Positions 7,218 to 29,653 of a DNA stretch of 64,000 nucleotides are shown here, piece after piece. The stretch lies in the IMG/VR virus record IMGVR_UViG_2778261087_000003. The stretch is one strand, 5' to 3'. The stretch is from a virus. Its lineage: Duplodnaviria; Heunggongvirae; Uroviricota; Caudoviricetes. The notes beneath the pieces are model-generated. The model did not search any database, was not told the origin of the DNA, and saw only the letters and a program-made list of their open reading frames with translations. The translations under genes were made by a program, and so were the position numbers. Numbering within the stretch: the first letter of the stretch is position 1; each line of letters opens with the position of its first letter.

Positions 7218-7234
7218 ATTGCTCTAATAAATTA
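7218..7234. promoter_or_regulatory. C1 operator (immC control region)
   Basis: Plus-strand ATTGCTCTAATAAATTA. Confidence 0.6.
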
Positions 7235-7792: not shown

Positions 7793-8644
7793 ATGATAAA
7801 TTATGTCTACGGCGAACAACTGTACCAGGAGTTCGTCAGCTTCAGGGATCTCTTTCTAAAAAAAGCTGTTGCACGCGCCCAACACGTTGATGCCGCCAGC
7901 GACGGTCGTCCTGTACGCCCGGTTGTCGTTCTGCCGTTCAAAGAAACTGACAGCATTCAGGCTGAAATTGATAAATGGACTTTAATGGCGCGGGAACTGG
8001 AACAGTACCCAGACCTCAATATCCCAAAGACTATTTTATATCCAGTGCCTAACATCCTTCGCGGTGTGCGTAAGGTTACGACTTATCAGACAGAAGCTGT
8101 GAACAGCGTCAACATGACCGCTGGCCGCATTATTCATCTGATTGATAAGGACATTCGCATCCAGAAAAGCGCAGGGATCAATGAGCACAGTGCGAAATAC
8201 ATAGAGAACCTGGAAGCAACAAAAGAGCTAATGAAGCAGTACCCGGAGGATGAAAAATTCCGTATGCGCGTACACGGCTTTAGCGAAACAATGCTGCGCG
8301 TCCATTACATTTCTAGTAGCCCTAACTACAATGATGGTAAATCAGTTAGTTACCATGTGCCGCTATGTGGTGTGTTTATCTGCGATGAAACTCTCCGTGA
8401 TGGAATTATCATCAACGGTGAATTCGAGAAAGCAAAATTTAGCCTTTATGACTCTATAGAACCGATCATCTGCGACCGCTGGCCGCAGGCAAAAATATAT
8501 CGCCTGGCAGATATTGAAAATGTAAAAAAACAAATTGCCATCACTCGCGAAGAGAAAAAGGTCAAATCAGCCGCATCAGTTACGCGCAGCCGTAAAACTA
8601 AGAAGGGGCAGCCAGTAAACGACAACCCCGAAAGCGCGCAATAG
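7793..8644 (+). CDS. c1: C1 repressor of lytic functions
   Basis: 283-aa ORF with strong GGAGGAGG RBS, downstream of coi and next to pacB; length and synteny match P1 C1; its cognate 17-mer operators are scattered through the window. Confidence 0.85.
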   Translation: MINYVYGEQLYQEFVSFRDLFLKKAVARAQHVDAASDGRPVRPVVVLPFKETDSIQAEIDKWTLMARELEQYPDLNIPKTILYPVPNILRGVRKVTTYQTEAVNSVNMTAGRIIHLIDKDIRIQKSAGINEHSAKYIENLEATKELMKQYPEDEKFRMRVHGFSETMLRVHYISSSPNYNDGKSVSYHVPLCGVFICDETLRDGIIINGEFEKAKFSLYDSIEPIICDRWPQAKIYRLADIENVKKQIAITREEKKVKSAASVTRSRKTKKGQPVNDNPESAQ

Positions 8645-23945: not shown

Positions 23946-23962
23946 ATATTTATTAGAGCAAT
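23946..23962. promoter_or_regulatory. C1 operator
   Basis: Minus-strand reading ATTGCTCTAATAAATAT, upstream of the gene starting at 23767. Confidence 0.55.
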
Positions 23963-24468
23963 TATTGTTGATGGAGAAGCGCGTTTTCATACTCCCTGAC
24001 CATTAACGTAAGCACGCCGTGCCTCCTGAAAACACGCGCCACTTCAATCTTATCTTCCAGCGCGAACGCAATTTTACTTAGACCAATTTTCTTCAGGAGA
24101 TCAATCTTTGCTGGGCCGTCATTTCTGTCATCGGTGGCAGGACGCATAGATAGCAAAGGCTCAGCCCCATTTGTTACGTGCTTACGCAACCAAGCTCGTG
24201 TTTTATCCCTGGCTATCTCACAGCGCCCGGTTACAAACCAGAGCGTGTAAATGCTGGACAACTGGCGCACCATATCAATAACTGGAGTGATGGGAGCATC
24301 AGTGTCACAGGCAAGGTTAAACTCGTTCCAGTGCTCTGTTAATGCACCTTTGCCAGGTGGTGGAAGTAAATGCAGCCTGTCTTCCGTTGCCTCTGATATC
24401 GTTCCATCAATATCTACTATGACGATGTACGGACGTTCCTGGTGTGCGTGTTTATTGAAAATACTCAA
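23962..24468 (-). CDS. HAD-superfamily phosphatase-like protein
   Basis: 168 aa; N-terminal DIDGT motif typical of HAD hydrolases. Confidence 0.6.
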   Translation of the reverse strand: MSIFNKHAHQERPYIVIVDIDGTISEATEDRLHLLPPPGKGALTEHWNEFNLACDTDAPITPVIDMVRQLSSIYTLWFVTGRCEIARDKTRAWLRKHVTNGAEPLLSMRPATDDRNDGPAKIDLLKKIGLSKIAFALEDKIEVARVFRRHGVLTLMVREYENALLHQQ

Positions 24469-24540: not shown

Positions 24541-25803
24541 TCAGCGAACGTAAATAGTGCCGCCGTTCTCTTTTTCCCATGCATCGCTACGTGCATAGCA
24601 AACATCGAGAAGTCTTCTTGCCGCAGTTTCCTCTAAACCCAATTCGACAACCAACTGCTCATGACGGCGGGTAACCACATCAAACAGGGTATGCAGCCCT
24701 TTAGTTGCCAGATCATCAATGAATTCCGGTTCGAACGGCAGCTCTGCATCTGCCAACATAACCTCTTGCGCCCACTCAACTCGACGGACCAGTTCCGGGC
24801 GGCGGCTTTCCATCTCTTTACAGATCAATTCATGGAAGAACTCTACCCAACCTTCCGGCTGGAACTCGCGGAAAATTGCCAACGGCTGGAAGTTTGGCAT
24901 CAACCATTCGTTGATTCGGATATCAATGGCATAGCCCATGTCGCAGCAGAACTGATAAGCAAAGTCCAGCTTAGAAACGATATAAGGACGCTCGTTATTG
25001 AACTCTTTAGGCGATGAGATCCCATAAGCCAGGAGGCGCGGGAAGAAGGAGATTTGCCCTAACGTCGGATGAAGTTTGCTTGCAGGGAAACGGCGCTCAG
25101 TAATGCCATACATTTCCTTCTTGAGCGTCGCAAATTTGGCATTCTCATTAACCAGCGCGGTAACCTCTGCTTTTTTATTAGCAAATGCCACGCGCGCCTC
25201 GCTTGCATCTTTAATAGTTTTTTTGAGCTGTTGGTTAAGGTCGGCGACCTGCTTACGCAGTTCCTGTCGCTCGCTTTTAGCTTTGTTATAGCGTTTCTCA
25301 AGGTTAAAAGGATCAAGTTTCATGATCTCTTTATATTGAGATTTTAGCGTTGAAATCTGTGAGTTCCGCAGTTCAACCATCGCGGTCATTTCATTGAGTT
25401 TTGTTTCCAGCTCAATGCTTATACGTTCGGCATTATCAGCACGCTGGTTGGCGTCATGCGTCGCATCGTCGATCGCGTCCTGTTGCTGGCGTTTCAAATG
25501 TTCAATTTGCAGCTGAAGCTCTTCAATTTCTTTACCCTTCAGACCAAGATCCAACTGCATATTTTCAGCTGCATCTACCAGGGAGTTATGGCTATCAGCT
25601 TCTGCGTTATAAACATCAATAAGCTGTGCGTGAAGCATCTCCGCTGACTGAACCGCATTATCAAAAAAACGCGCTGTGAGGTCATCACAACTAACGCGGC
25701 GTTGCGCGGCCCGGATGTTCTGGATAATGGCCGGGATACCGGCATTCAGGACGTCAGGGATAGATACATTTTCGATTGATTGGTTTTGTGCTGAAGTGCT
25801 CAT
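24541..25803 (-). CDS. hypothetical protein with N-terminal coiled coil
   Basis: 420-aa ORF; extended heptad-rich region aa ~80-220; no catalytic motif recognised. Confidence 0.55.
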   Translation of the reverse strand: MSTSAQNQSIENVSIPDVLNAGIPAIIQNIRAAQRRVSCDDLTARFFDNAVQSAEMLHAQLIDVYNAEADSHNSLVDAAENMQLDLGLKGKEIEELQLQIEHLKRQQQDAIDDATHDANQRADNAERISIELETKLNEMTAMVELRNSQISTLKSQYKEIMKLDPFNLEKRYNKAKSERQELRKQVADLNQQLKKTIKDASEARVAFANKKAEVTALVNENAKFATLKKEMYGITERRFPASKLHPTLGQISFFPRLLAYGISSPKEFNNERPYIVSKLDFAYQFCCDMGYAIDIRINEWLMPNFQPLAIFREFQPEGWVEFFHELICKEMESRRPELVRRVEWAQEVMLADAELPFEPEFIDDLATKGLHTLFDVVTRRHEQLVVELGLEETAARRLLDVCYARSDAWEKENGGTIYVR

Positions 25804-25804
25804 T

Positions 25805-26023
25805 TCAAAGTTCCGTATTAGCTTGTGCTTCGGTCATTTTTCCTAAGTATGAAGGAGGAAGGACTACGCAATTTGTATCCAGTCCCTCACCTATGGCAGC
25901 CTGTAAAATTCTGGCTAAGGTGAGTCTCTTGTTGCGATACCTGGTGATGACATGCCTGATACCGCCGGTCGGCGTAACAAAGGCGATCAGCCAGTAGTGA
26001 TATTTCCGTCGGAATGGCCACAT
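25805..26023 (-). CDS. hypothetical small protein
   Basis: 72-aa ORF directly downstream of paired C1 operators. Confidence 0.4.
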   Translation of the reverse strand: MWPFRRKYHYWLIAFVTPTGGIRHVITRYRNKRLTLARILQAAIGEGLDTNCVVLPPSYLGKMTEAQANTEL

Positions 26024-26037
26024 AGCGCACCTTGTAG

Positions 26038-26103
26038 ATTGCTCTAATAAAAAACGTGATGAGTGTACATCACGTTTTAAAAATATGGAATTATTAGAGC
26101 AAT
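26038..26103. promoter_or_regulatory. pair of C1 operator 17-mers flanking a short inverted repeat
   Basis: ATTGCTCTAATAAAAAA (plus, 26038-26054) and ATTGCTCTAATAATTCC (minus, 26087-26103) either side of cgtgatg...atcacg. Confidence 0.55.
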
Positions 26104-26104
26104 A

Positions 26105-26806
26105 TTATTCTGATTCTCGCTCAAAAAATGAGCTGATAAGGGGAAGCCAATCCTCTGACACTTCGCGAGGTCGCGGTTTGCCGTGGAAAAAGATTATTCG
26201 GCAGTCTTTTGGTAATGCCCCATTCCCCCTGGAGTAACGCGCGCTCGCATATTTTGAACCAGGTTCCACAACATCGGCCTTGTAACTTACAAACCATCCT
26301 GGATACAGATCCTGAAATGCTGGTGTATCATCGCCCATAACCTTTCGTAAGAACCCCTGGTCACCCCAACACTCAGTAGTGACACAACGAGAAATCCAAC
26401 CTTCCGGATCTTGCCAGAATGAACTCCAGATATGCGCTTTAACACTATTTGGTATCCACAGGGCACCGCTGCCACGATATTGTGGATGGTAAAAATCCCT
26501 AAGCATGGTGAAGCTGGTTGGTGGATGCTCTAGGATTGGGCGTATATCACCGGCAATAACCGTGTCCAAATCCAGATAGAACAGATCATCGGTTATATCC
26601 GGTCGGAACAACTCGATTTTCGCCCACCAGCCACGGCACTTTTGCCACTGGTTGATCAATGGGACAACTTTGACGCCAGGTACATGTAAACGCTTCAGGT
26701 CTGTCAGGCAAATAATTTCATAGCCTTTTGGCAGTTGATTAACCAGCCACTGCACATCGGAAGCGTTATAGTCACCACCAGAGCGAAAAACTAAAGCAAT
26801 CTTCAT
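26105..26806 (-). CDS. putative glycosyltransferase-like protein (DxD motif)
   Basis: 233 aa; YLDLDTV motif in a predicted GT-A-like context; weak, motif-based. Confidence 0.45.
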
Positions 26807-27495
26807 GCTGCACCATCACCTTTCACTTTCATCAATGTCAGGTTTCCGCAAAATACGGCACCAGTGTCGATATACTGCTGATTCCAGAATGTCTTCGGGC
26901 TTTTCACCGGAGTGTGACCAAAGATAAAACGATCTGCGCCCGAAATTTCGCCACCAATATCATCCATCGAATCACTGATACGCTCGCGCGCCCAGACAAC
27001 GTTGAAAAGCGGCACCTCCTTACCGAATTGGTATTCATTATCCGGATAGTCGGCATGGGCTATAACGATAGTTTCTTGCCCGGTGTTCAACTCAATGATA
27101 TAGGGCAGACGCTTTACCAGCTCCACCAGCGCCCTGGCTAATATTTCCTGATCAGTGTCCAGCATGAAGAACCATTGTCCGCCATTCATTAGCCAGTTAT
27201 TCACGTTGCCATCAGGACTTAACGCATCGAGCATCAACCGCTCATGGTTCCCCATCACTGCCCTGAACCAGGGCATCTGCAATAGTTCCAGACATTCGAC
27301 ATTTTCAGTACCGCGATCGATAAGGTCGCCGACCGATATCAGTAAATCCTGCGCCGGGTCAAAATCCACACGATGGAGTTCGGACATCAGTCTGGTGTAG
27401 CAACCATGCAGATCACCAACAACCCAGACATTCCTGTATTTGGTACCGTCGATACGGTGATAAATTGTGGGTGCCATCATGTATTCTTCAGCCAT
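26803..27495 (-). CDS. ppp: Ser/Thr protein phosphatase (lambda-phosphatase-like metallophosphoesterase)
   Basis: 230 aa; GDLHG, GDLIDRG and GNHE motifs. Confidence 0.85.
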
Positions 27496-28103
27496 TCTTT
27501 AAGAGTCATCTGCGGAATACCTCCCATTTTCCCGCATGAAACAACGTCAATCTGTTCACGCGCAGACTGGAATAACAAAGGCAGGTGACTTAGATTTTTT
27601 GGCGTGCCGCCGGAGTGAACGCGTAGTTCTTGCGTAGCGTCAACGCCCACCAGAGCTACATGTTTGAATCCGATATGGAAAGCCAGGTTCAGAGCACCAT
27701 ATGCACTATTGCCGCTGGCAATTTCATTCTCATCTTCGCAAAGGCCGAAATGTGCGGACCAGCGCCACGCCCACCACTCGGGAGAATTCGTATTTTTTGG
27801 CTCCATGCCGCGTTCAGCCACACGACGGAAGCACAGAACGCCATCTCTGACTTCACGTTCTTTAACATCGGGTAGTGCCATGCAATAACAAACACCACGG
27901 CGACGGCGGCCACGACCAACGCGCCGCATATTGTCTGGCGATGGATCAAGTGTGAAAAAATAAGAAGCGCGGTTAAGCCAGTCGATGGCCCCATTGACCG
28001 CTATAATCGGCACTCCGCGCGGCGCAACAAAGTTTGCGGCGCTTGGGCCACTGCCGACGATAATAACGCGATCACTGCCTCTAAATTTATTCTTGGGAAA
28101 CAT
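27477..28103 (-). CDS. hypothetical protein with Rossmann-like GSGPS loop (MptE/DUF115-like?), paralogue of 28001..28663
   Basis: 208 aa; [10 protein letters not shown]...IIAVNGA pattern shared with the upstream ORF. Confidence 0.5.
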
Positions 28104-28663
28104 TGAATTGCACTGTTCCTACTTGCATTCAAAATATGTAAATCTGCGTGTTTTTTGCGGGTATCCAGGAACTGCTGTTGCCATTTTGAAATAGACACCT
28201 GCGTTGGATTCCGTAGGGCTTGAGGATGCGCGCCATGCCAATGAAGGCCGTTTTGCAGAGAACAGTCATAGCCGACTAATACAACTACTTCAGCCCCTGA
28301 TTCAGCAGCCAGACTGATAGCCTGCGCGCCGCTATTTACCCCTTCCGCCGGTCCACAATATCGCCTGTACTCCAACGAAAATGATTTCGCCGCCGCCAGG
28401 TTGGCTGTCACTTTGCGGAATCTCCCTCCCGGTATGGTGGATCCGTATTGCTTCCACCATGACGAATCACCGGCGTATAAGGCATAAATGTCATCGAACA
28501 TCTGCCAGGAATTGTTAACCGCGATGATTGAACAGCCAGTTTTTTCTATAGCAGCACAGTCCTCACGAGTGAGTGACGGACCGCTACCGACACAAAAAAC
28601 AGTCCTAGTCGCCCTGGGTGGTATGTTCATTCTCAGCTGCAAATTCAGCCTCCAGGCGAGCAT
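28001..28663 (-). CDS. hypothetical protein with Rossmann-like GSGPS loop, paralogue of 27477..28103
   Basis: 220 aa; FCVGSGPS...IIAVNNS; overlaps the downstream paralogue by 103 nt. Confidence 0.5.
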   Translation of the reverse strand: MLAWRLNLQLRMNIPPRATRTVFCVGSGPSLTREDCAAIEKTGCSIIAVNNSWQMFDDIYALYAGDSSWWKQYGSTIPGGRFRKVTANLAAAKSFSLEYRRYCGPAEGVNSGAQAISLAAESGAEVVVLVGYDCSLQNGLHWHGAHPQALRNPTQVSISKWQQQFLDTRKKHADLHILNASRNSAIQCFPRINLEAVIALLSSAVAQAPQTLLRRAECRL

Positions 28664-28826
28664 TCATTTCAGCGATTACCGGGTCCACTACAGCATCTGC
28701 TTCCTGTTCATTACGCGGCATGATCGATGCCAGCGATTCATAATTAGCCTTGGATGACACGATTATTCTCCCGATGTTAATGTGCGCTGTATCAAAGAAT
28801 ACATATGCACTAATTAATTTATTATT

Positions 28827-29405
28827 TCACGTAGCGTACAACCACTTGTCACCGTTCAATACATGCTCAATAGCCTCACCCTTTTTAAGGCTCATGTATT
28901 CCAGGATGGCGGTTATCGCTTGTTCTGCACCATACGCAAGAACGACGTAGTAACCTTCCTCTCTAAGCCTGCGCATCCAGGCGATCTGCTCTTGCGTCGG
29001 GGCTTTACCATTTGGTTCTTTAAGCTCAATTCGCATGCCGTGATAAATACCGCATGCTTTATCGAGACTCATGTCCGGATAACCTTTTTTCTGCCCTTCA
29101 GCCTTCATTTTCCCGGCGGTTGCTTTTGAACGTTTCCCTCCGTTAGGCGTTGCATGCAACAGCTCATAGATGTCAGGGTGCTTGCGTTCGAAGTAATCAA
29201 AAATGAAAACCTGCTCGAAGTGCTCGCAATTTCCGTCGCGCAGGTCTGGGTTCTTTGCCAGTGCTGCAAGTGCCTTCGCATGTGGAGAAACTTCTTTTAC
29301 CGGCGCAAGCGATAAGAATGGATCCTTTTTGGTTTTTGGCCTGGACCGCCCCTTATTTCGACGCTCACTAAAAGCCTGAAACTCTTCCTCAGTAAAGCGC
29401 AACAT
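28827..29405 (-). CDS. VRR-NUC domain nuclease-like protein
   Basis: 192 aa; GYPDMSL...RIELKEP matches the VRR-NUC PD...ExK arrangement. Confidence 0.55.
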   Translation of the reverse strand: MLRFTEEEFQAFSERRNKGRSRPKTKKDPFLSLAPVKEVSPHAKALAALAKNPDLRDGNCEHFEQVFIFDYFERKHPDIYELLHATPNGGKRSKATAGKMKAEGQKKGYPDMSLDKACGIYHGMRIELKEPNGKAPTQEQIAWMRRLREEGYYVVLAYGAEQAITAILEYMSLKKGEAIEHVLNGDKWLYAT

Positions 29406-29407
29406 AA

Positions 29408-29653
29408 TCAGTCAAATCCTGCCGGTCGCATGCCATATTTACGCTGTTTTGCGGCCTGCTCTTCCCTGTGCCATTGCGCACATTCAGCGTCACAATAAAT
29501 GCCTGATTCAATCGATTCATTGCAGTAACGACACTTCCCTGTAAATACCTGGCTCACGACCTGTGCCTGCTTTCTGATGTTATCGATGGCCATGTCTTTG
29601 AGAGCTTCTAACTGATTCATGCTCAGCTCTGCATCATCAACACGTTCTGCCAA
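29408..29653 (-). CDS. TraR/DksA-type C4 zinc-finger protein
   Basis: 81 aa; CRYC-x12-CDAEC; first gene of the leftward operon. Confidence 0.55.
   Translation of the reverse strand: MAERVDDAELSMNQLEALKDMAIDNIRKQAQVVSQVFTGKCRYCNESIESGIYCDAECAQWHREEQAAKQRKYGMRPAGFD

Follow-up and report, generated by a model that had tools for sequence, protein, structure and literature searches.

The stretch analyzed here (the window, 64,000 nucleotides) is of a P1-type phage or phage-plasmid, and the genes under study form its pmgN-pmgO-pmgP-ppp-pmgQ operon. Over 3.7 kb, the region shares 98.8-99% nucleotide identity with P1, P7 and RCS47, in which pmgQ, ppp, pmgP, pmgO and dbn are annotated with the same overlap. 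The PmgP proteins of P1 and the window are 100% identical, and the gene order is that of Punavirus P1 (pmgM / pmgN-pmgO-pmgP-ppp-pmgQ / pmgR-pmgS). The open reading frames listed in the first-pass annotation at 26105-26806, 27477-28103, 28001-28663 and 34597-35571, with ppp between the first two, were recovered at exactly these coordinates, all on the minus strand. Using an offset that equates position 8001 of the P1 annotation (L001) with window position 25800, we placed the C1 repressor operator Oppp (Op83; L001 11005-11021) between pmgM and pmgN at 28804-28820 on the plus strand. Its sequence in the window, TATGCACTAATTAATTT, has four mismatches to the consensus operator and was missed for this reason by our operator scan, which allowed up to three. 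With the same offset, the predicted sigma-70 promoter PpmgN (L001 11034-11060) falls at 28833-28859 on the minus strand, within the 3' end of pmgM. Because this annotated, predicted promoter is controlled by C1, the P1 operon is probably expressed early rather than strictly late.

The first gene of the operon, pmgN (28605-28760, minus strand), has a GTG start preceded by a GGGAG Shine-Dalgarno sequence, encodes an acidic protein of 51 aa (phrog_2350, unknown function) and overlaps pmgO by 59 nt. On the same strand lie pmgO (28001-28663, 220 aa) and pmgP (27477-28103, 208 aa), which encode paralogs with a predicted minimal Maf/CstII/MptE (DUF115) fold and, for PmgO, a predicted glycosyltransferase function; ppp (26803-27495, 230 aa), which encodes a lambda NinI-like Ser/Thr phosphatase (Metallophos, E 8.7e-16; phrog_246); and pmgQ (26105-26806, 233 aa), which encodes a predicted GT8-like retaining GT-A glycosyltransferase (phrog_1962 'glycosyltransferase', E 2.5e-128). 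A fifth gene, dbn (34597-35571, minus strand, 324 aa), encodes a predicted GT4/GT-B-like glycosyltransferase and is linked to the module by synteny. None of the proteins has a transmembrane segment (maximum 19-residue Kyte-Doolittle score 1.55). All four of pmgO, pmgP, pmgQ and dbn are already known and already annotated as glycosyltransferase-like; our literature search, which also covered capsid glycosylation, phage DUF115 proteins, a phiNP sialyltransferase and phage WaaZ, found no functional study of pmgO, pmgP or pmgQ. By CRISPRi, these genes are dispensable for plaque formation (PMC10695390, where a study of pmgO, pmgP, ppp and pmgQ knock-outs is also cited), and 24 of the 29 mutants in the knock-out library had no defect (PMC9024508).

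PmgO and PmgP had been described as paralogs carrying a Rossmann-type loop, which agrees with their sequences (FCVGSGPSL...IIAVNNS in PmgO and IIVGSGPSA...IIAVNGA in PmgP). Pairwise comparison of the two proteins gave a weak match (BLASTP E 0.003), and hhalign comparison of their family profiles, from which an O-P fusion protein was left out, aligned 165 columns with a probability of 98.1% (E 7.4e-14). Their suggested likeness to the MptE/DUF115 family was borne out as well: 42 of 47 family members matched PF01973 at E <= 0.01 (best 3.1e-8), and some homologs carry a precomputed PF01973 match, with the window proteins scoring below the curated gathering threshold of 34.6 bits (23.4 bits for PmgO and 20.9 bits for PmgP). 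By these profile scores, both proteins appear to be divergent outliers of the DUF115 superfamily. Structure prediction, named earlier as a check, yielded a DUF115-domain fold for P1 PmgO and PmgP, modeled individually (pLDDT 86.8 and 94.4, respectively). The best structural match of both models was Maf, with the longest alignments (163-164 residues), and a Foldseek search of a viral structure library returned only uncharacterized, DUF115 or sialyltransferase-named proteins. Searching the PDB with a joint PmgO+PmgP profile, we found that each of the nine best matches was Maf or a CstI/CstII sialyltransferase (E-values of only 0.03-0.3), that the GPS and SG...GxD motifs lined up in these matches, and that the MptE kinase 8sd5 gave no sequence-level match. 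The PmgP family profile retrieved nothing from the PDB, and PmgO as a single sequence gave only chance matches to solved structures.

Several invariant or nearly invariant motifs align to those of CstII, namely G28-P29-S30, N50, S111-G112 and G131-x-D133 in PmgO and G19-P20-S21, N37, S133 and G153-x-D155 in PmgP. The GxD motif is followed in PmgO by an invariant H-W-H-G-x-H cluster and in PmgP by R...GG...NLSH; across phages, PmgP is far more conserved than PmgO. PmgO and PmgP are two diverged, soluble, minimal predicted enzymes of ~200 aa with a predicted Maf/CstII/MptE nucleotide-binding fold.

The two genes share 103 nt (28001-28103, minus strand), as originally reported, with PmgP in the -1 frame relative to PmgO; this dual-coding segment comprises the C-terminal 33 codons and stop codon of pmgO and the first 34 codons of pmgP. 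A sequencing error, one of the origins first suggested for it, is excluded, because 78 of 82 independent P1-like contigs carry the overlap with both reading frames uninterrupted (77 have an identical sequence). A mis-called start is likewise set aside, the ATG at 28103 being the sole usable start that retains the conserved VIIVGSGPS strand. This ATG is embedded in the conserved Cys-Phe-Pro motif of PmgO (caATGTTTCCC), and within the overlap the conserved part of each protein faces the non-conserved part of the other. The third suggestion, a programmed -1 ribosomal frameshift producing a PmgO-PmgP fusion, would suit the relative frame of pmgP and the two X XXY YYZ heptamers (T TTC CCA and A AAT TTA) found in the PmgO frame inside the overlap, and a natural in-frame O-P fusion is known from one metagenomic contig. 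A one-base assembly error could also account for that lone fusion. However, A AAT TTA is confined to P1-type sequences and missing in the closest diverged relatives (L114, L086 and L104), a shift at this site would remove the invariant Leu194 helix of PmgO, and T TTC CCA merely represents the codons of the conserved Phe-Pro. Moreover, the overlap ranges from 4 to 148 nt across relatives, and in L088-L092, L102, L117 and L122, pmgO and pmgP either are not neighbors or lie on opposite strands. With heptamer, overlap length and gene arrangement all not conserved, we rejected a conserved programmed frameshift, and we regard frameshifting or a sequencing or annotation artifact as a highly improbable origin of the overlap. 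The 103-nt overlap is a genuine compact gene junction, and it probably serves coupled translation.

The 233-aa protein with a DxD motif, originally typed as GT-A-like, can be placed more precisely as GT8-like, with its motif in FYLDLDTVI. As a single sequence, PmgQ gave a weak GT8 match among solved structures (E 0.086), and its family profile matched AgtA (6mw5, E 4.5e-7), a GT8 structure (5gvv, E 0.003) and glycogenin (E 0.006). None of the 27 family members matched any Pfam model, Glyco_transf_8 included. Across these 27 sequences, the conserved residues are D79-L-D81, G148-D149 and H208-G209-x-P211-R212-P213, of which D79-L-D81, G148-D149, H208-G209 and P213 are invariant, and Q150 is nearly so. 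The resulting DLD, GDQ and FHGxPRP motifs align to the metal-binding and catalytic motifs of GT8 enzymes (AgtA and glycogenin), and PmgQ is accordingly predicted to be a divergent GT8-like retaining GT-A enzyme with both kinds of motif intact.

The gene at 34597-35571, first flagged as GT-B-like, is GT4/GT-B-like at the motif level and does travel with the other three. Dbn matched the Pfam model Glycos_transf_1 at E 2.2e-5 (24.5 bits, under the 26.4 cut-off), and only 4 of 43 family members matched this model. Residues H238, E240 and E248 are invariant in the 43 sequences, and E240-x7-E248 corresponds to the E-x7-E motif of GT4 type. The sole match to a solved glycosyltransferase (8xsg, E 0.0023) lies at this motif, and RefSeq names the RCS47 ortholog a 'glycosyltransferase family 4 protein'. 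In the window, dbn lies 6 kb from the module; in EP_H11, it sits between P and Q in a contiguous O-P-Dbn-Q arrangement, and in three further loci it is found within 3-5 kb. Homologs lie inside or adjoin the O/P/Q module in L125, L098, L102 and L110.

The genes pmgO, pmgP and pmgQ occur together in almost every locus with enough flanking sequence. Scanning viral contigs with the PmgP alignment returned only near-identical P1 copies, and divergent single queries were used instead. The hosts and carriers of the module include Pantoea, Pseudescherichia, Serratia, Pseudomonas, Zhongshania, Brevundimonas, Sinomicrobium, prophages of E. coli, and the phages phiNP, EP_H11 and XacN1, a jumbo phage of Xanthomonas. 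O, P and Q are thus a conserved mobile core that extends from Enterobacteria to Bacteroidota in many phages of Gram-negative bacteria. Depending on the lineage, the core is joined by Dbn, another small DxD protein, a GT2-like protein, methyltransferases or a sulfotransferase; the accessory genes inside the module encode SAM and FkbM methyltransferases, a GT2-like protein and a Sulfotransfer_2 protein. PADLOC defense models gave zero matches to the module.

In HK97-like prophages, the module often follows the major capsid gene. Some of them, such as a Pseudomonas D3-like phage, encode a small Ser/Thr/Pro-rich protein between the capsid gene and PmgO, which is a candidate acceptor beside the capsid protein itself. 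At least six loci place it between the genes for the major head protein and the head-tail connector (L094, L103/L107, L116, L117, L122 and L128), and in L117 and L122 it is interleaved with the connector genes. Since the capsids of all these capsid-adjacent loci belong to phrog_10, common descent may explain part of the shared synteny, in place of independent origins. Elsewhere, the module occupies lysis-terminase junctions (L003, L104 and phiNP), adjoins lysis or tail-fiber genes in several loci, lies inside an island of invasin-like adhesin genes (L127) or stands among small genes that look early (EP_H11); in P1, the capsid gene lies at a great distance from it.

The first-pass annotation had grouped these genes around ppp, and this association proved incidental. 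Among the loci compared, a ppp gene located between P and Q is a feature of the window, L086 and L114 alone. Distant P1-like elements lack it and read pmgM-O-P-Q-pmgS, and in phage D6 ppp has a different context, with none of O, P and Q as neighbors. We therefore rejected a functional unit that includes ppp: loci without it keep O, P and Q, and the D6 gene stands apart. The phosphatase gene is an unrelated insertion into the module, specific to the P1 lineage.

The earlier proposal of a glycosylation module acting on the host surface, DNA or protein survives in part: we favor a protein target in the virion, judge a DNA target unlikely and keep the host surface as a rival. The explanation that fits best is a glycosylation pathway of the cytoplasm whose target is most likely a virion protein; we hold it with evenly balanced confidence. 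Glycosyltransferase activity of the predicted enzymes is probable in itself, and a virion protein as acceptor is plausible at somewhat short of even confidence. During lytic growth, the four enzymes would build a short glycan in the cytoplasm, with PmgQ and Dbn adding hexoses from UDP-sugars and PmgO and PmgP each adding a CMP-activated ulosonic acid; the acceptor would most likely be a head protein of the phage particle. In E. coli K-12, CMP-Kdo is to our knowledge the only CMP-activated ulosonic acid donor, and Kdo as the donor is a guess that we consider rather doubtful. In its fullest version, the scheme would apply to P1 and to numerous further phages of Gram-negative hosts: a head protein would be covered with a short, acidic glycan, to which PmgO and PmgP would contribute a ulosonic acid (Kdo or another) drawn from the CMP-Kdo of the host, and PmgQ and Dbn would contribute hexoses. 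This version is quite unlikely to hold in every part. Placement between the capsid and connector genes in at least six loci speaks for a virion acceptor, as does XacN1, which carries the O-P-Q trio and has at least two virion glycoproteins (PMC5852040); the P1 virion proteomics paper mentions no glycan. Three further observations count against a virion acceptor. The position of the module varies and is not always structural, the C1-controlled promoter points to early rather than strictly late expression of the P1 operon, and PmgO and PmgP are without the extra domains of Maf (632 residues in the Maf target, ~164 aligned), which bind the protein acceptor.

P1 itself uses the LPS core as its receptor, and this core would be a different acceptor. 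Like the host Waa enzymes, the four proteins would then modify lipid A-core on the inner side of the cytoplasmic membrane, with PmgP or PmgO resembling the Kdo transferase WaaZ, PmgQ resembling WaaO/WaaJ (GT8) and Dbn resembling WaaG (GT4); an altered or truncated core would exclude superinfecting phage or reduce the loss of progeny on debris. Counterparts of all four enzyme classes do exist in the E. coli waa locus, and PmgQ aligns with low probability to WaaJ over the DxD and HxxGxxKPW motifs. The matches to WaaZ (TIGR04437 at E 0.1, a precomputed PF27901 match on P0038 marked 'faint' and an hhalign alignment at the correct motif) are non-significant, however, with hhalign probabilities of 13-21%. 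PmgP is strikingly conserved across differing hosts, for which we know of no common glycolipid element other than Kdo-lipid A, and the proteins are small and without protein-recognition domains, like the LOS sialyltransferases; yet O, P and Q are kept together despite very different host core structures, and the module has no flippase, ligase or membrane protein. Overexpression of WaaZ reportedly leads to a truncated outer core, which we count for this alternative, as we do the lysis and tail-fiber neighbors of several loci, a frequent place of surface-modifying accessory genes. Recurrent placement between capsid and connector genes, interleaved in L117 and L122, is by contrast unexpected for a surface-conversion gene; in addition, C1 represses the operon in the lysogen, and LPS made only late in lytic growth would presumably contribute little to the outer membrane as a whole. 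Weighing both sides, we consider LPS or receptor remodeling unlikely.

PmgO and PmgP might also not be glycosyltransferases at all, in which case they would use ATP to pyrophosphorylate or nucleotidylate a small molecule in the manner of MptE or thiamine pyrophosphokinases, for example a cofactor precursor or a signaling or anti-defense metabolite, with PmgQ and Dbn acting separately. Their sole Pfam family match is indeed named after the MptE kinase, and the sialyltransferase sequence matches are below significance. This possibility is nevertheless improbable, given that Maf is the best structural match for both proteins, that 8sd5 is never among the nine best PDB sequence matches, that known defense models give no match, that on unsystematic inspection no genes of pterin or thiamine pathways were noticed in the vicinity, and that the strict partner is a GT8-like enzyme and the frequent partners are glycosyltransferases, sugar-type methyltransferases and a carbohydrate sulfotransferase. 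Glycosylation of phage DNA against restriction, as by the T-even glucosyltransferases, is barely credible. Common restriction enzymes cut P1 virion DNA normally, and its methylation is, as far as is known, of the Dam/Dcm type only; it is on this normal restriction that our negative judgment of the earlier DNA proposal rests. No hydroxymethylase or TET-like gene was noticed in passing. Phage glycosyltransferases of GT-A and GT-B type are known to modify DNA (PMC13326640; 10.1101/2023.12.21.572611), and the module of EP_H11 lies amid early-looking genes; against this, anti-restriction in P1 is handled by packaged Dar proteins, and knock-outs of dispensable genes, taken in aggregate, left it unchanged (PMC9024508). 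The capsid-connector placement in many prophages does not fit a DNA target either, and on these grounds we rejected it.

P1 is among the most used phages in genetics, and its pmgO, pmgP, pmgQ and dbn still have placeholder names and no phenotype. Our analysis groups these four genes in one predicted glycosylation pathway, leaves ppp outside it, and finds the same three-gene core beside the capsid gene in many prophages. If a virion protein is the target, phages of Gram-negative bacteria would join the mycobacteriophages in having glycosylated particles, which matters for phage therapy because immune recognition and particle stability are involved; if it is not, the annotation of a model genome is still cleaner. 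Should the head carry a Kdo-containing glycan, P1 would be the first coliphage with a system for glycosylating its virion, and an LPS-like sugar on the capsid could affect particle stability, aggregation, sticking to envelopes, and recognition by the host and by animal immune systems.

Among characterized enzymes, the closest in fold to PmgO and PmgP is the Maf flagellin glycosyltransferase of Magnetospirillum magneticum (PDB 5mu5, PF01973/DUF115), whose chain is ~3 times larger and shares 16-17% identity with them; the PmgO and PmgP families mostly score under the cut-off of the Maf family PF01973. The Campylobacter LOS sialyltransferases CstI and CstII (CAZy GT42; 2p56 and 1ro7) share G-x-G-P-S, an Asn after strand 2, S-G and G-x-D with them, at non-significant E-values of 0.03-0.6. 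They differ after GxD from the H-W-H-G-x-H of PmgO and the R...GG...NLSH of PmgP. Archaeal MptE (6-hydroxymethyl-7,8-dihydropterin pyrophosphokinase, 8sd5) and the thiamine pyrophosphokinases are ATP-dependent cofactor kinases, whereas PmgO and PmgP have glycosyltransferases and enzymes of glycan tailoring as genomic partners. E. coli WaaZ (KdoIII transferase) is small, soluble and thought to use CMP-Kdo, and its SG...GxD-like motif aligns with PmgO and PmgP, a likeness that is statistically unsupported at the scores given above; Acinetobacter KdoT is an unrelated GT-B enzyme. In the GT8 family (the Skp1 alpha-galactosyltransferase AgtA, 6mw5; glycogenin; streptococcal 5gvv; WaaO/WaaJ), the DxD, (G)DQ and H-x-x-G-x-x-(K/R)-P motifs align with PmgQ, which is shorter (~200-240 aa) and without a Pfam match.

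At the level of whole systems, mycobacteriophage virions are reportedly glycosylated by phage-encoded glycosyltransferases. Those systems differ in having Actinobacteria as hosts and in their enzyme families. Capsid glycosylation has also been suggested elsewhere from two putative glycosyltransferase genes (PMC11256854). The concept proposed for P1 is nonetheless the same as in the mycobacteriophages: the phage would decorate its capsid or tail proteins by means of cytoplasmic glycosyltransferases of its own, whose genes lie near structural genes and are not needed for growth.

Positions 25800–29500 of the window aligned over their full length with phages RCS47, P1 and P7 at 98.8–99.0% identity, and the window is a P1-type phage-plasmid. 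The open reading frames that the first-pass annotation had cited as a sugar/nucleotide-transfer cluster were all recovered, all on the minus strand, and match genes of the P1 annotation, in which the region comprises pmgQ (26105–26806, 233 aa), ppp (26803–27495, 230 aa), pmgP (27477–28103, 208 aa), pmgO (28001–28663, 220 aa) and pmgN (28605–28760, 51 aa), with dbn lying apart (34597–35571, minus strand, 324 aa). The operon is tightly packed, with overlaps of 59 nt (pmgN/pmgO), 103 nt (pmgO/pmgP), 19 nt (pmgP/ppp) and 4 nt (ppp/pmgQ); in P7 its genes are named hdmD, ppp, hdmC, hdmB and hdmA (“head morphogenesis”).

According to the P1 annotation, a C1 operator (Op83) and a predicted sigma-70 promoter precede the operon, and a late promoter lies farther upstream, ahead of pmgL. 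The Op83 counterpart is present in the window at the matching position (28804–28820). This operator before pmgN has four mismatches to the C1 consensus and hence falls outside a scan allowing up to three, which returned 15 sites against 0.3 expected by chance (among them 7218–7234, 23946–23962, 26038–26054, 26087–26103, 29711–29727 and 40043–40059), in keeping with the way the C1 regulon is dispersed in P1. By CRISPRi, pmgN came out as essential-like (EOP 1.4e-2), whereas knock-out reported it as non-essential (PMC10695390); polarity or promoter blocking at the operon head may account for the score. Nearby, pmgM (28827–29405, minus strand), annotated in P1 with a “putative morphogenetic function”, resembles VRR-NUC/Holliday-junction-resolvase-type nucleases (PF08774, E 4e-4; phrog_5702, E 1e-26), and pap (23962–24468, minus strand) is a PNKP-type HAD phosphatase (PF25109, E 8.6e-12); neither looks morphogenetic.

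PmgO and PmgP, proposed earlier to be paralogues, show faint pairwise similarity (E 0.003), but comparing the two family profiles gives a full-length match (hhalign probability 98.1%, E 7.4e-14), which bears out that proposal. Both, like 42 of 47 family members, match PF01973 (MptE-like/DUF115) below threshold. The confident AlphaFold models (PmgO, pLDDT 86.8 and pTM 0.83; PmgP, pLDDT 94.4 and pTM 0.92) matched the Maf flagellin glycosyltransferase 5mu5 (scores of 14.2 and 13.5 for the two proteins), the MptE-type pterin pyrophosphokinase 8sd5 (11.3 and 12.6) and Campylobacter CstI 2p56 (10.6 and 10.6), followed by SteA, thiamine pyrophosphokinases and animal sialyltransferases. The nine best PDB matches of a joint PmgO–PmgP profile were all CstI/CstII or Maf, with E values of only 0.03–0.3, and their alignments fall at the G-x-G-P-S loop and the S-G...G-x-D motif. 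The fold is securely assigned; whether the two proteins are read as glycosyltransferases or as pyrophosphokinases depends on genomic context.

For PmgQ, a Pfam search gave no match for the protein or any of 27 family members. Its family profile, searched against solved structures, matched the Skp1 alpha-galactosyltransferase AgtA (E 4.5e-7), a streptococcal GT8 enzyme (E 0.003) and glycogenin (E 0.006), and D79-L-D81, G148-D149-Q150 and F-H208-G-x-P-R-P align with the DxD, DQ and H-x-x-G-x-x-K-P-W motifs of GT8; the previous “DxD GT-A-like” call was thus correct, and GT8-like is the more precise assignment. Dbn matches Glycos_transf_1 slightly under threshold. Across 43 representatives, H238, E240 and E248 are invariant, the two glutamates forming the E-x7-E motif of GT4 type, with which its sole match to a solved glycosyltransferase coincides.

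The 103-nt overlap of pmgO and pmgP is genuine. It is annotated in the GenBank records of both P1 and P7, and both frames are intact with an overlap of identical length in 78 of 82 independent P1-like contigs, 77 of which are also sequence-identical across it. PmgP is read in the −1 frame relative to PmgO, its ATG lying within the codons (caATGTTTCCC) of a Cys-Phe-Pro motif that is conserved close to the C-terminus of PmgO. A variable 11-residue PmgP leader is overlain by the 15-residue conserved end of PmgO, and the non-conserved PmgO tail by PmgP's first strand and GSGPS loop, both conserved; the conserved parts of the two proteins scarcely compete for sequence. A start downstream of 28103 would cost PmgP its conserved strand, and the start is therefore not mis-called. 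The PmgO frame contains two X XXY YYZ heptamers: A AAT TTA is confined to P1-type sequences, and a shift there would remove the invariant Leu194 helix, while T TTC CCA represents merely the codons of Phe-Pro. Because the overlap varies from 4 to 148 nt in relatives, and several lineages have the two genes apart from each other or on opposite strands, we rejected a conserved programmed frameshift; none of the explanations offered before (frameshift, sequencing error or mis-called start) holds. An ordinary compact junction, probably with coupled translation, is the best reading of the overlap. In one metagenomic contig, a single case in which assembly error is possible, the two genes are fused in frame (P0038), a hint that PmgO and PmgP may work together.

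Profile HMMs of the PmgO, PmgP and PmgQ families, run on loci from genomes, viral contigs and annotated phages, detected all three together in nearly every locus with sufficient flank. These include P1-like elements of Pantoea and others, chromosomal islands of Pseudescherichia, Serratia and Buttiauxella, prophages of Pseudomonas, Zhongshania, Microbulbifer, Gilvimarinus, Brevundimonas and Methylophilaceae, a Bacteroidota genome (Sinomicrobium), a Longimicrobiales MAG, E. coli and Citrobacter prophages (phiNP), the 111-kb coliphage EP_H11 and the 385-kb Xanthomonas jumbo phage XacN1 (ORF375-373; locus L126, 6303–8946). In XacN1 the PmgQ domain lies inside a larger product of 438 aa, with two very large ORFs after it. 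By this distribution, O-P-Q constitutes a conserved, mobile module. The cluster had been described as flanking ppp, and this grouping did not hold: ppp lies between pmgP and pmgQ solely in the P1 lineage proper (the window and loci L086 and L114), farther P1-like elements read pmgM-O-P-Q-pmgS without it (L108–L111, L115, L120), and in phage D6 it occupies another neighbourhood, which places it, on synteny, outside the module.

The earlier guess that the remote GT-B-like gene joins the cluster gained support. In EP_H11, Dbn forms part of an uninterrupted O-P-Dbn-Q run, and it lies within 3–5 kb of the module in three further loci (L098, L102, L110), an arrangement that supports its belonging with O-P-Q. 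In P1, ban and dbn directly abut. The window carries between ban (35870–37240) and dbn a stretch of ~280 nt, with a 101-aa ORF (35568–35873, minus strand; phrog_12809), that is absent from 18 of 18 P1-like records of the phage collection (query 34500–36000 covered 81%, in two pieces).

In other lineages the module includes class I SAM and FkbM-type methyltransferases, a GT2-like protein, a carbohydrate sulfotransferase (PF03567) and, in at least five loci, an unclassified DxD protein of ~192 aa. Variable accessory genes lie at L128:10579–11193, L116:6640–7269, L117:8572–9195, L094:8570–9139, L119:9102–9752 and L003:11757–12335. An E. coli prophage (L104, 10588–11342) has PmgQ split between two ORFs, and in phage phi456 an IS element (InsB) is annotated in the matched region beside pmgP and pmgM, with pmgO not listed there; both are signs of module decay and fit a dispensable function.

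In six independent HK97-like structural operons (L094, L103/L107, L116, L117, L122, L128), the module directly follows the major head protein gene (phrog_10 or PF05065; E 1e-61 to 1e-81 where scored against PHROGs) and precedes the head–tail connector genes, which are interleaved with it in L117 and L122. Elsewhere it occupies the junction of lysis and packaging or tail genes (L003, L104/L105, phiNP) or, in the degraded element L102, lies beside lysis genes. In Pseudescherichia it stands amid invasin/intimin-like Big_1 adhesin genes. In the Pseudescherichia and Serratia chromosomes (L127, the same element as L088–L092, 2236–18532; L102, 2674–5115), O, P and Q are interleaved with Big_1/Invasin_D3/IAT_beta adhesin genes in place of phage structural genes, a hint at secreted adhesins as a possible further glycosylation target of the module.

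The module partners are all soluble, none of the module or operon proteins has a transmembrane segment, and neither a flippase nor a ligase nor any lipid-carrier enzyme is encoded in the module, so the acceptor has to be accessible from the cytoplasm. Because the head-gene neighbourhood recurs, we predict that the acceptor is most likely a virion (head) protein. This prediction is further favoured by the similarity to Maf, which glycosylates flagellin, and by the at least two glycoproteins reported in XacN1 virions, ascribed there to other glycosyltransferases (PMC5852040). The HK97-like loci also encode, between the capsid gene and PmgO, a small protein of 84–133 aa (L094:7280–7564, L112:4357–4656, L116:5258–5599, L117:5648–5935, L122:5613–5867, L128:9154–9555) with a conserved N-terminal domain of ~45 aa (weak DUF7210), a Ser/Thr/Pro/Ala-rich linker (PTEPTEPTE repeats in L128) and a basic tail, which we speculate could be a glycan acceptor or head decoration protein.

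Remodelling of the LPS core would suit the strong conservation of PmgP, and the enzyme classes mirror WaaZ, WaaO/WaaJ and WaaG, but we consider it doubtful: the similarity to WaaZ is not significant, the operon is repressed in the lysogen, and the capsid-side synteny would be left unexplained. A kinase role for PmgO and PmgP, compatible with the fold alone, appears quite improbable given that their companions are glycan enzymes, which is the main reason for taking them as glycosyltransferases. Glycosylation of P1 DNA is unlikely, given what is generally known of that DNA. Known defence models gave no match. For glycosylation of a virion protein, our guess for the donor is CMP-Kdo, because the glycosyltransferases among the fold relatives use CMP-activated ulosonic acids, Gram-negative bacteria make CMP-Kdo for LPS, the hosts seen with the module are all Gram-negative, and no CMP-sugar synthesis genes were noticed in its annotated neighbourhoods.

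We found no paper on the function of pmgO, pmgP, pmgQ or dbn. CRISPRi knock-down of these genes and ppp left plaque formation unaffected, and the same report's table cites a knock-out study for their non-essentiality (PMC10695390); in the knock-out library, 24 of 29 single-gene mutants plaqued normally and were unchanged in antirestriction activity, these genes being unnamed in the main text (PMC9024508). The genes themselves are already known: the Lobocka P1 annotation gives them a “putative morphogenetic function”, and PHROG/RefSeq-derived names are “glycosyltransferase” (pmgQ), “alpha-2,3-sialyltransferase” (pmgO) and “glycosyltransferase family 4” (dbn; “glycosyltransferase family 4 protein” for the RCS47 orthologue), with PmgP listed as of unknown function (phrog_2111). 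What is new is computational: PmgP as a PmgO paralogue of shared fold, O, P, Q and Dbn as one module excluding ppp, an explanation of the pmgO/pmgP overlap, and head-gene synteny that suggests virion glycosylation. The significance would grow substantially only if a virion glycan were demonstrated; we rate PmgO, PmgP, PmgQ and Dbn as probable divergent members of known enzyme kinds.
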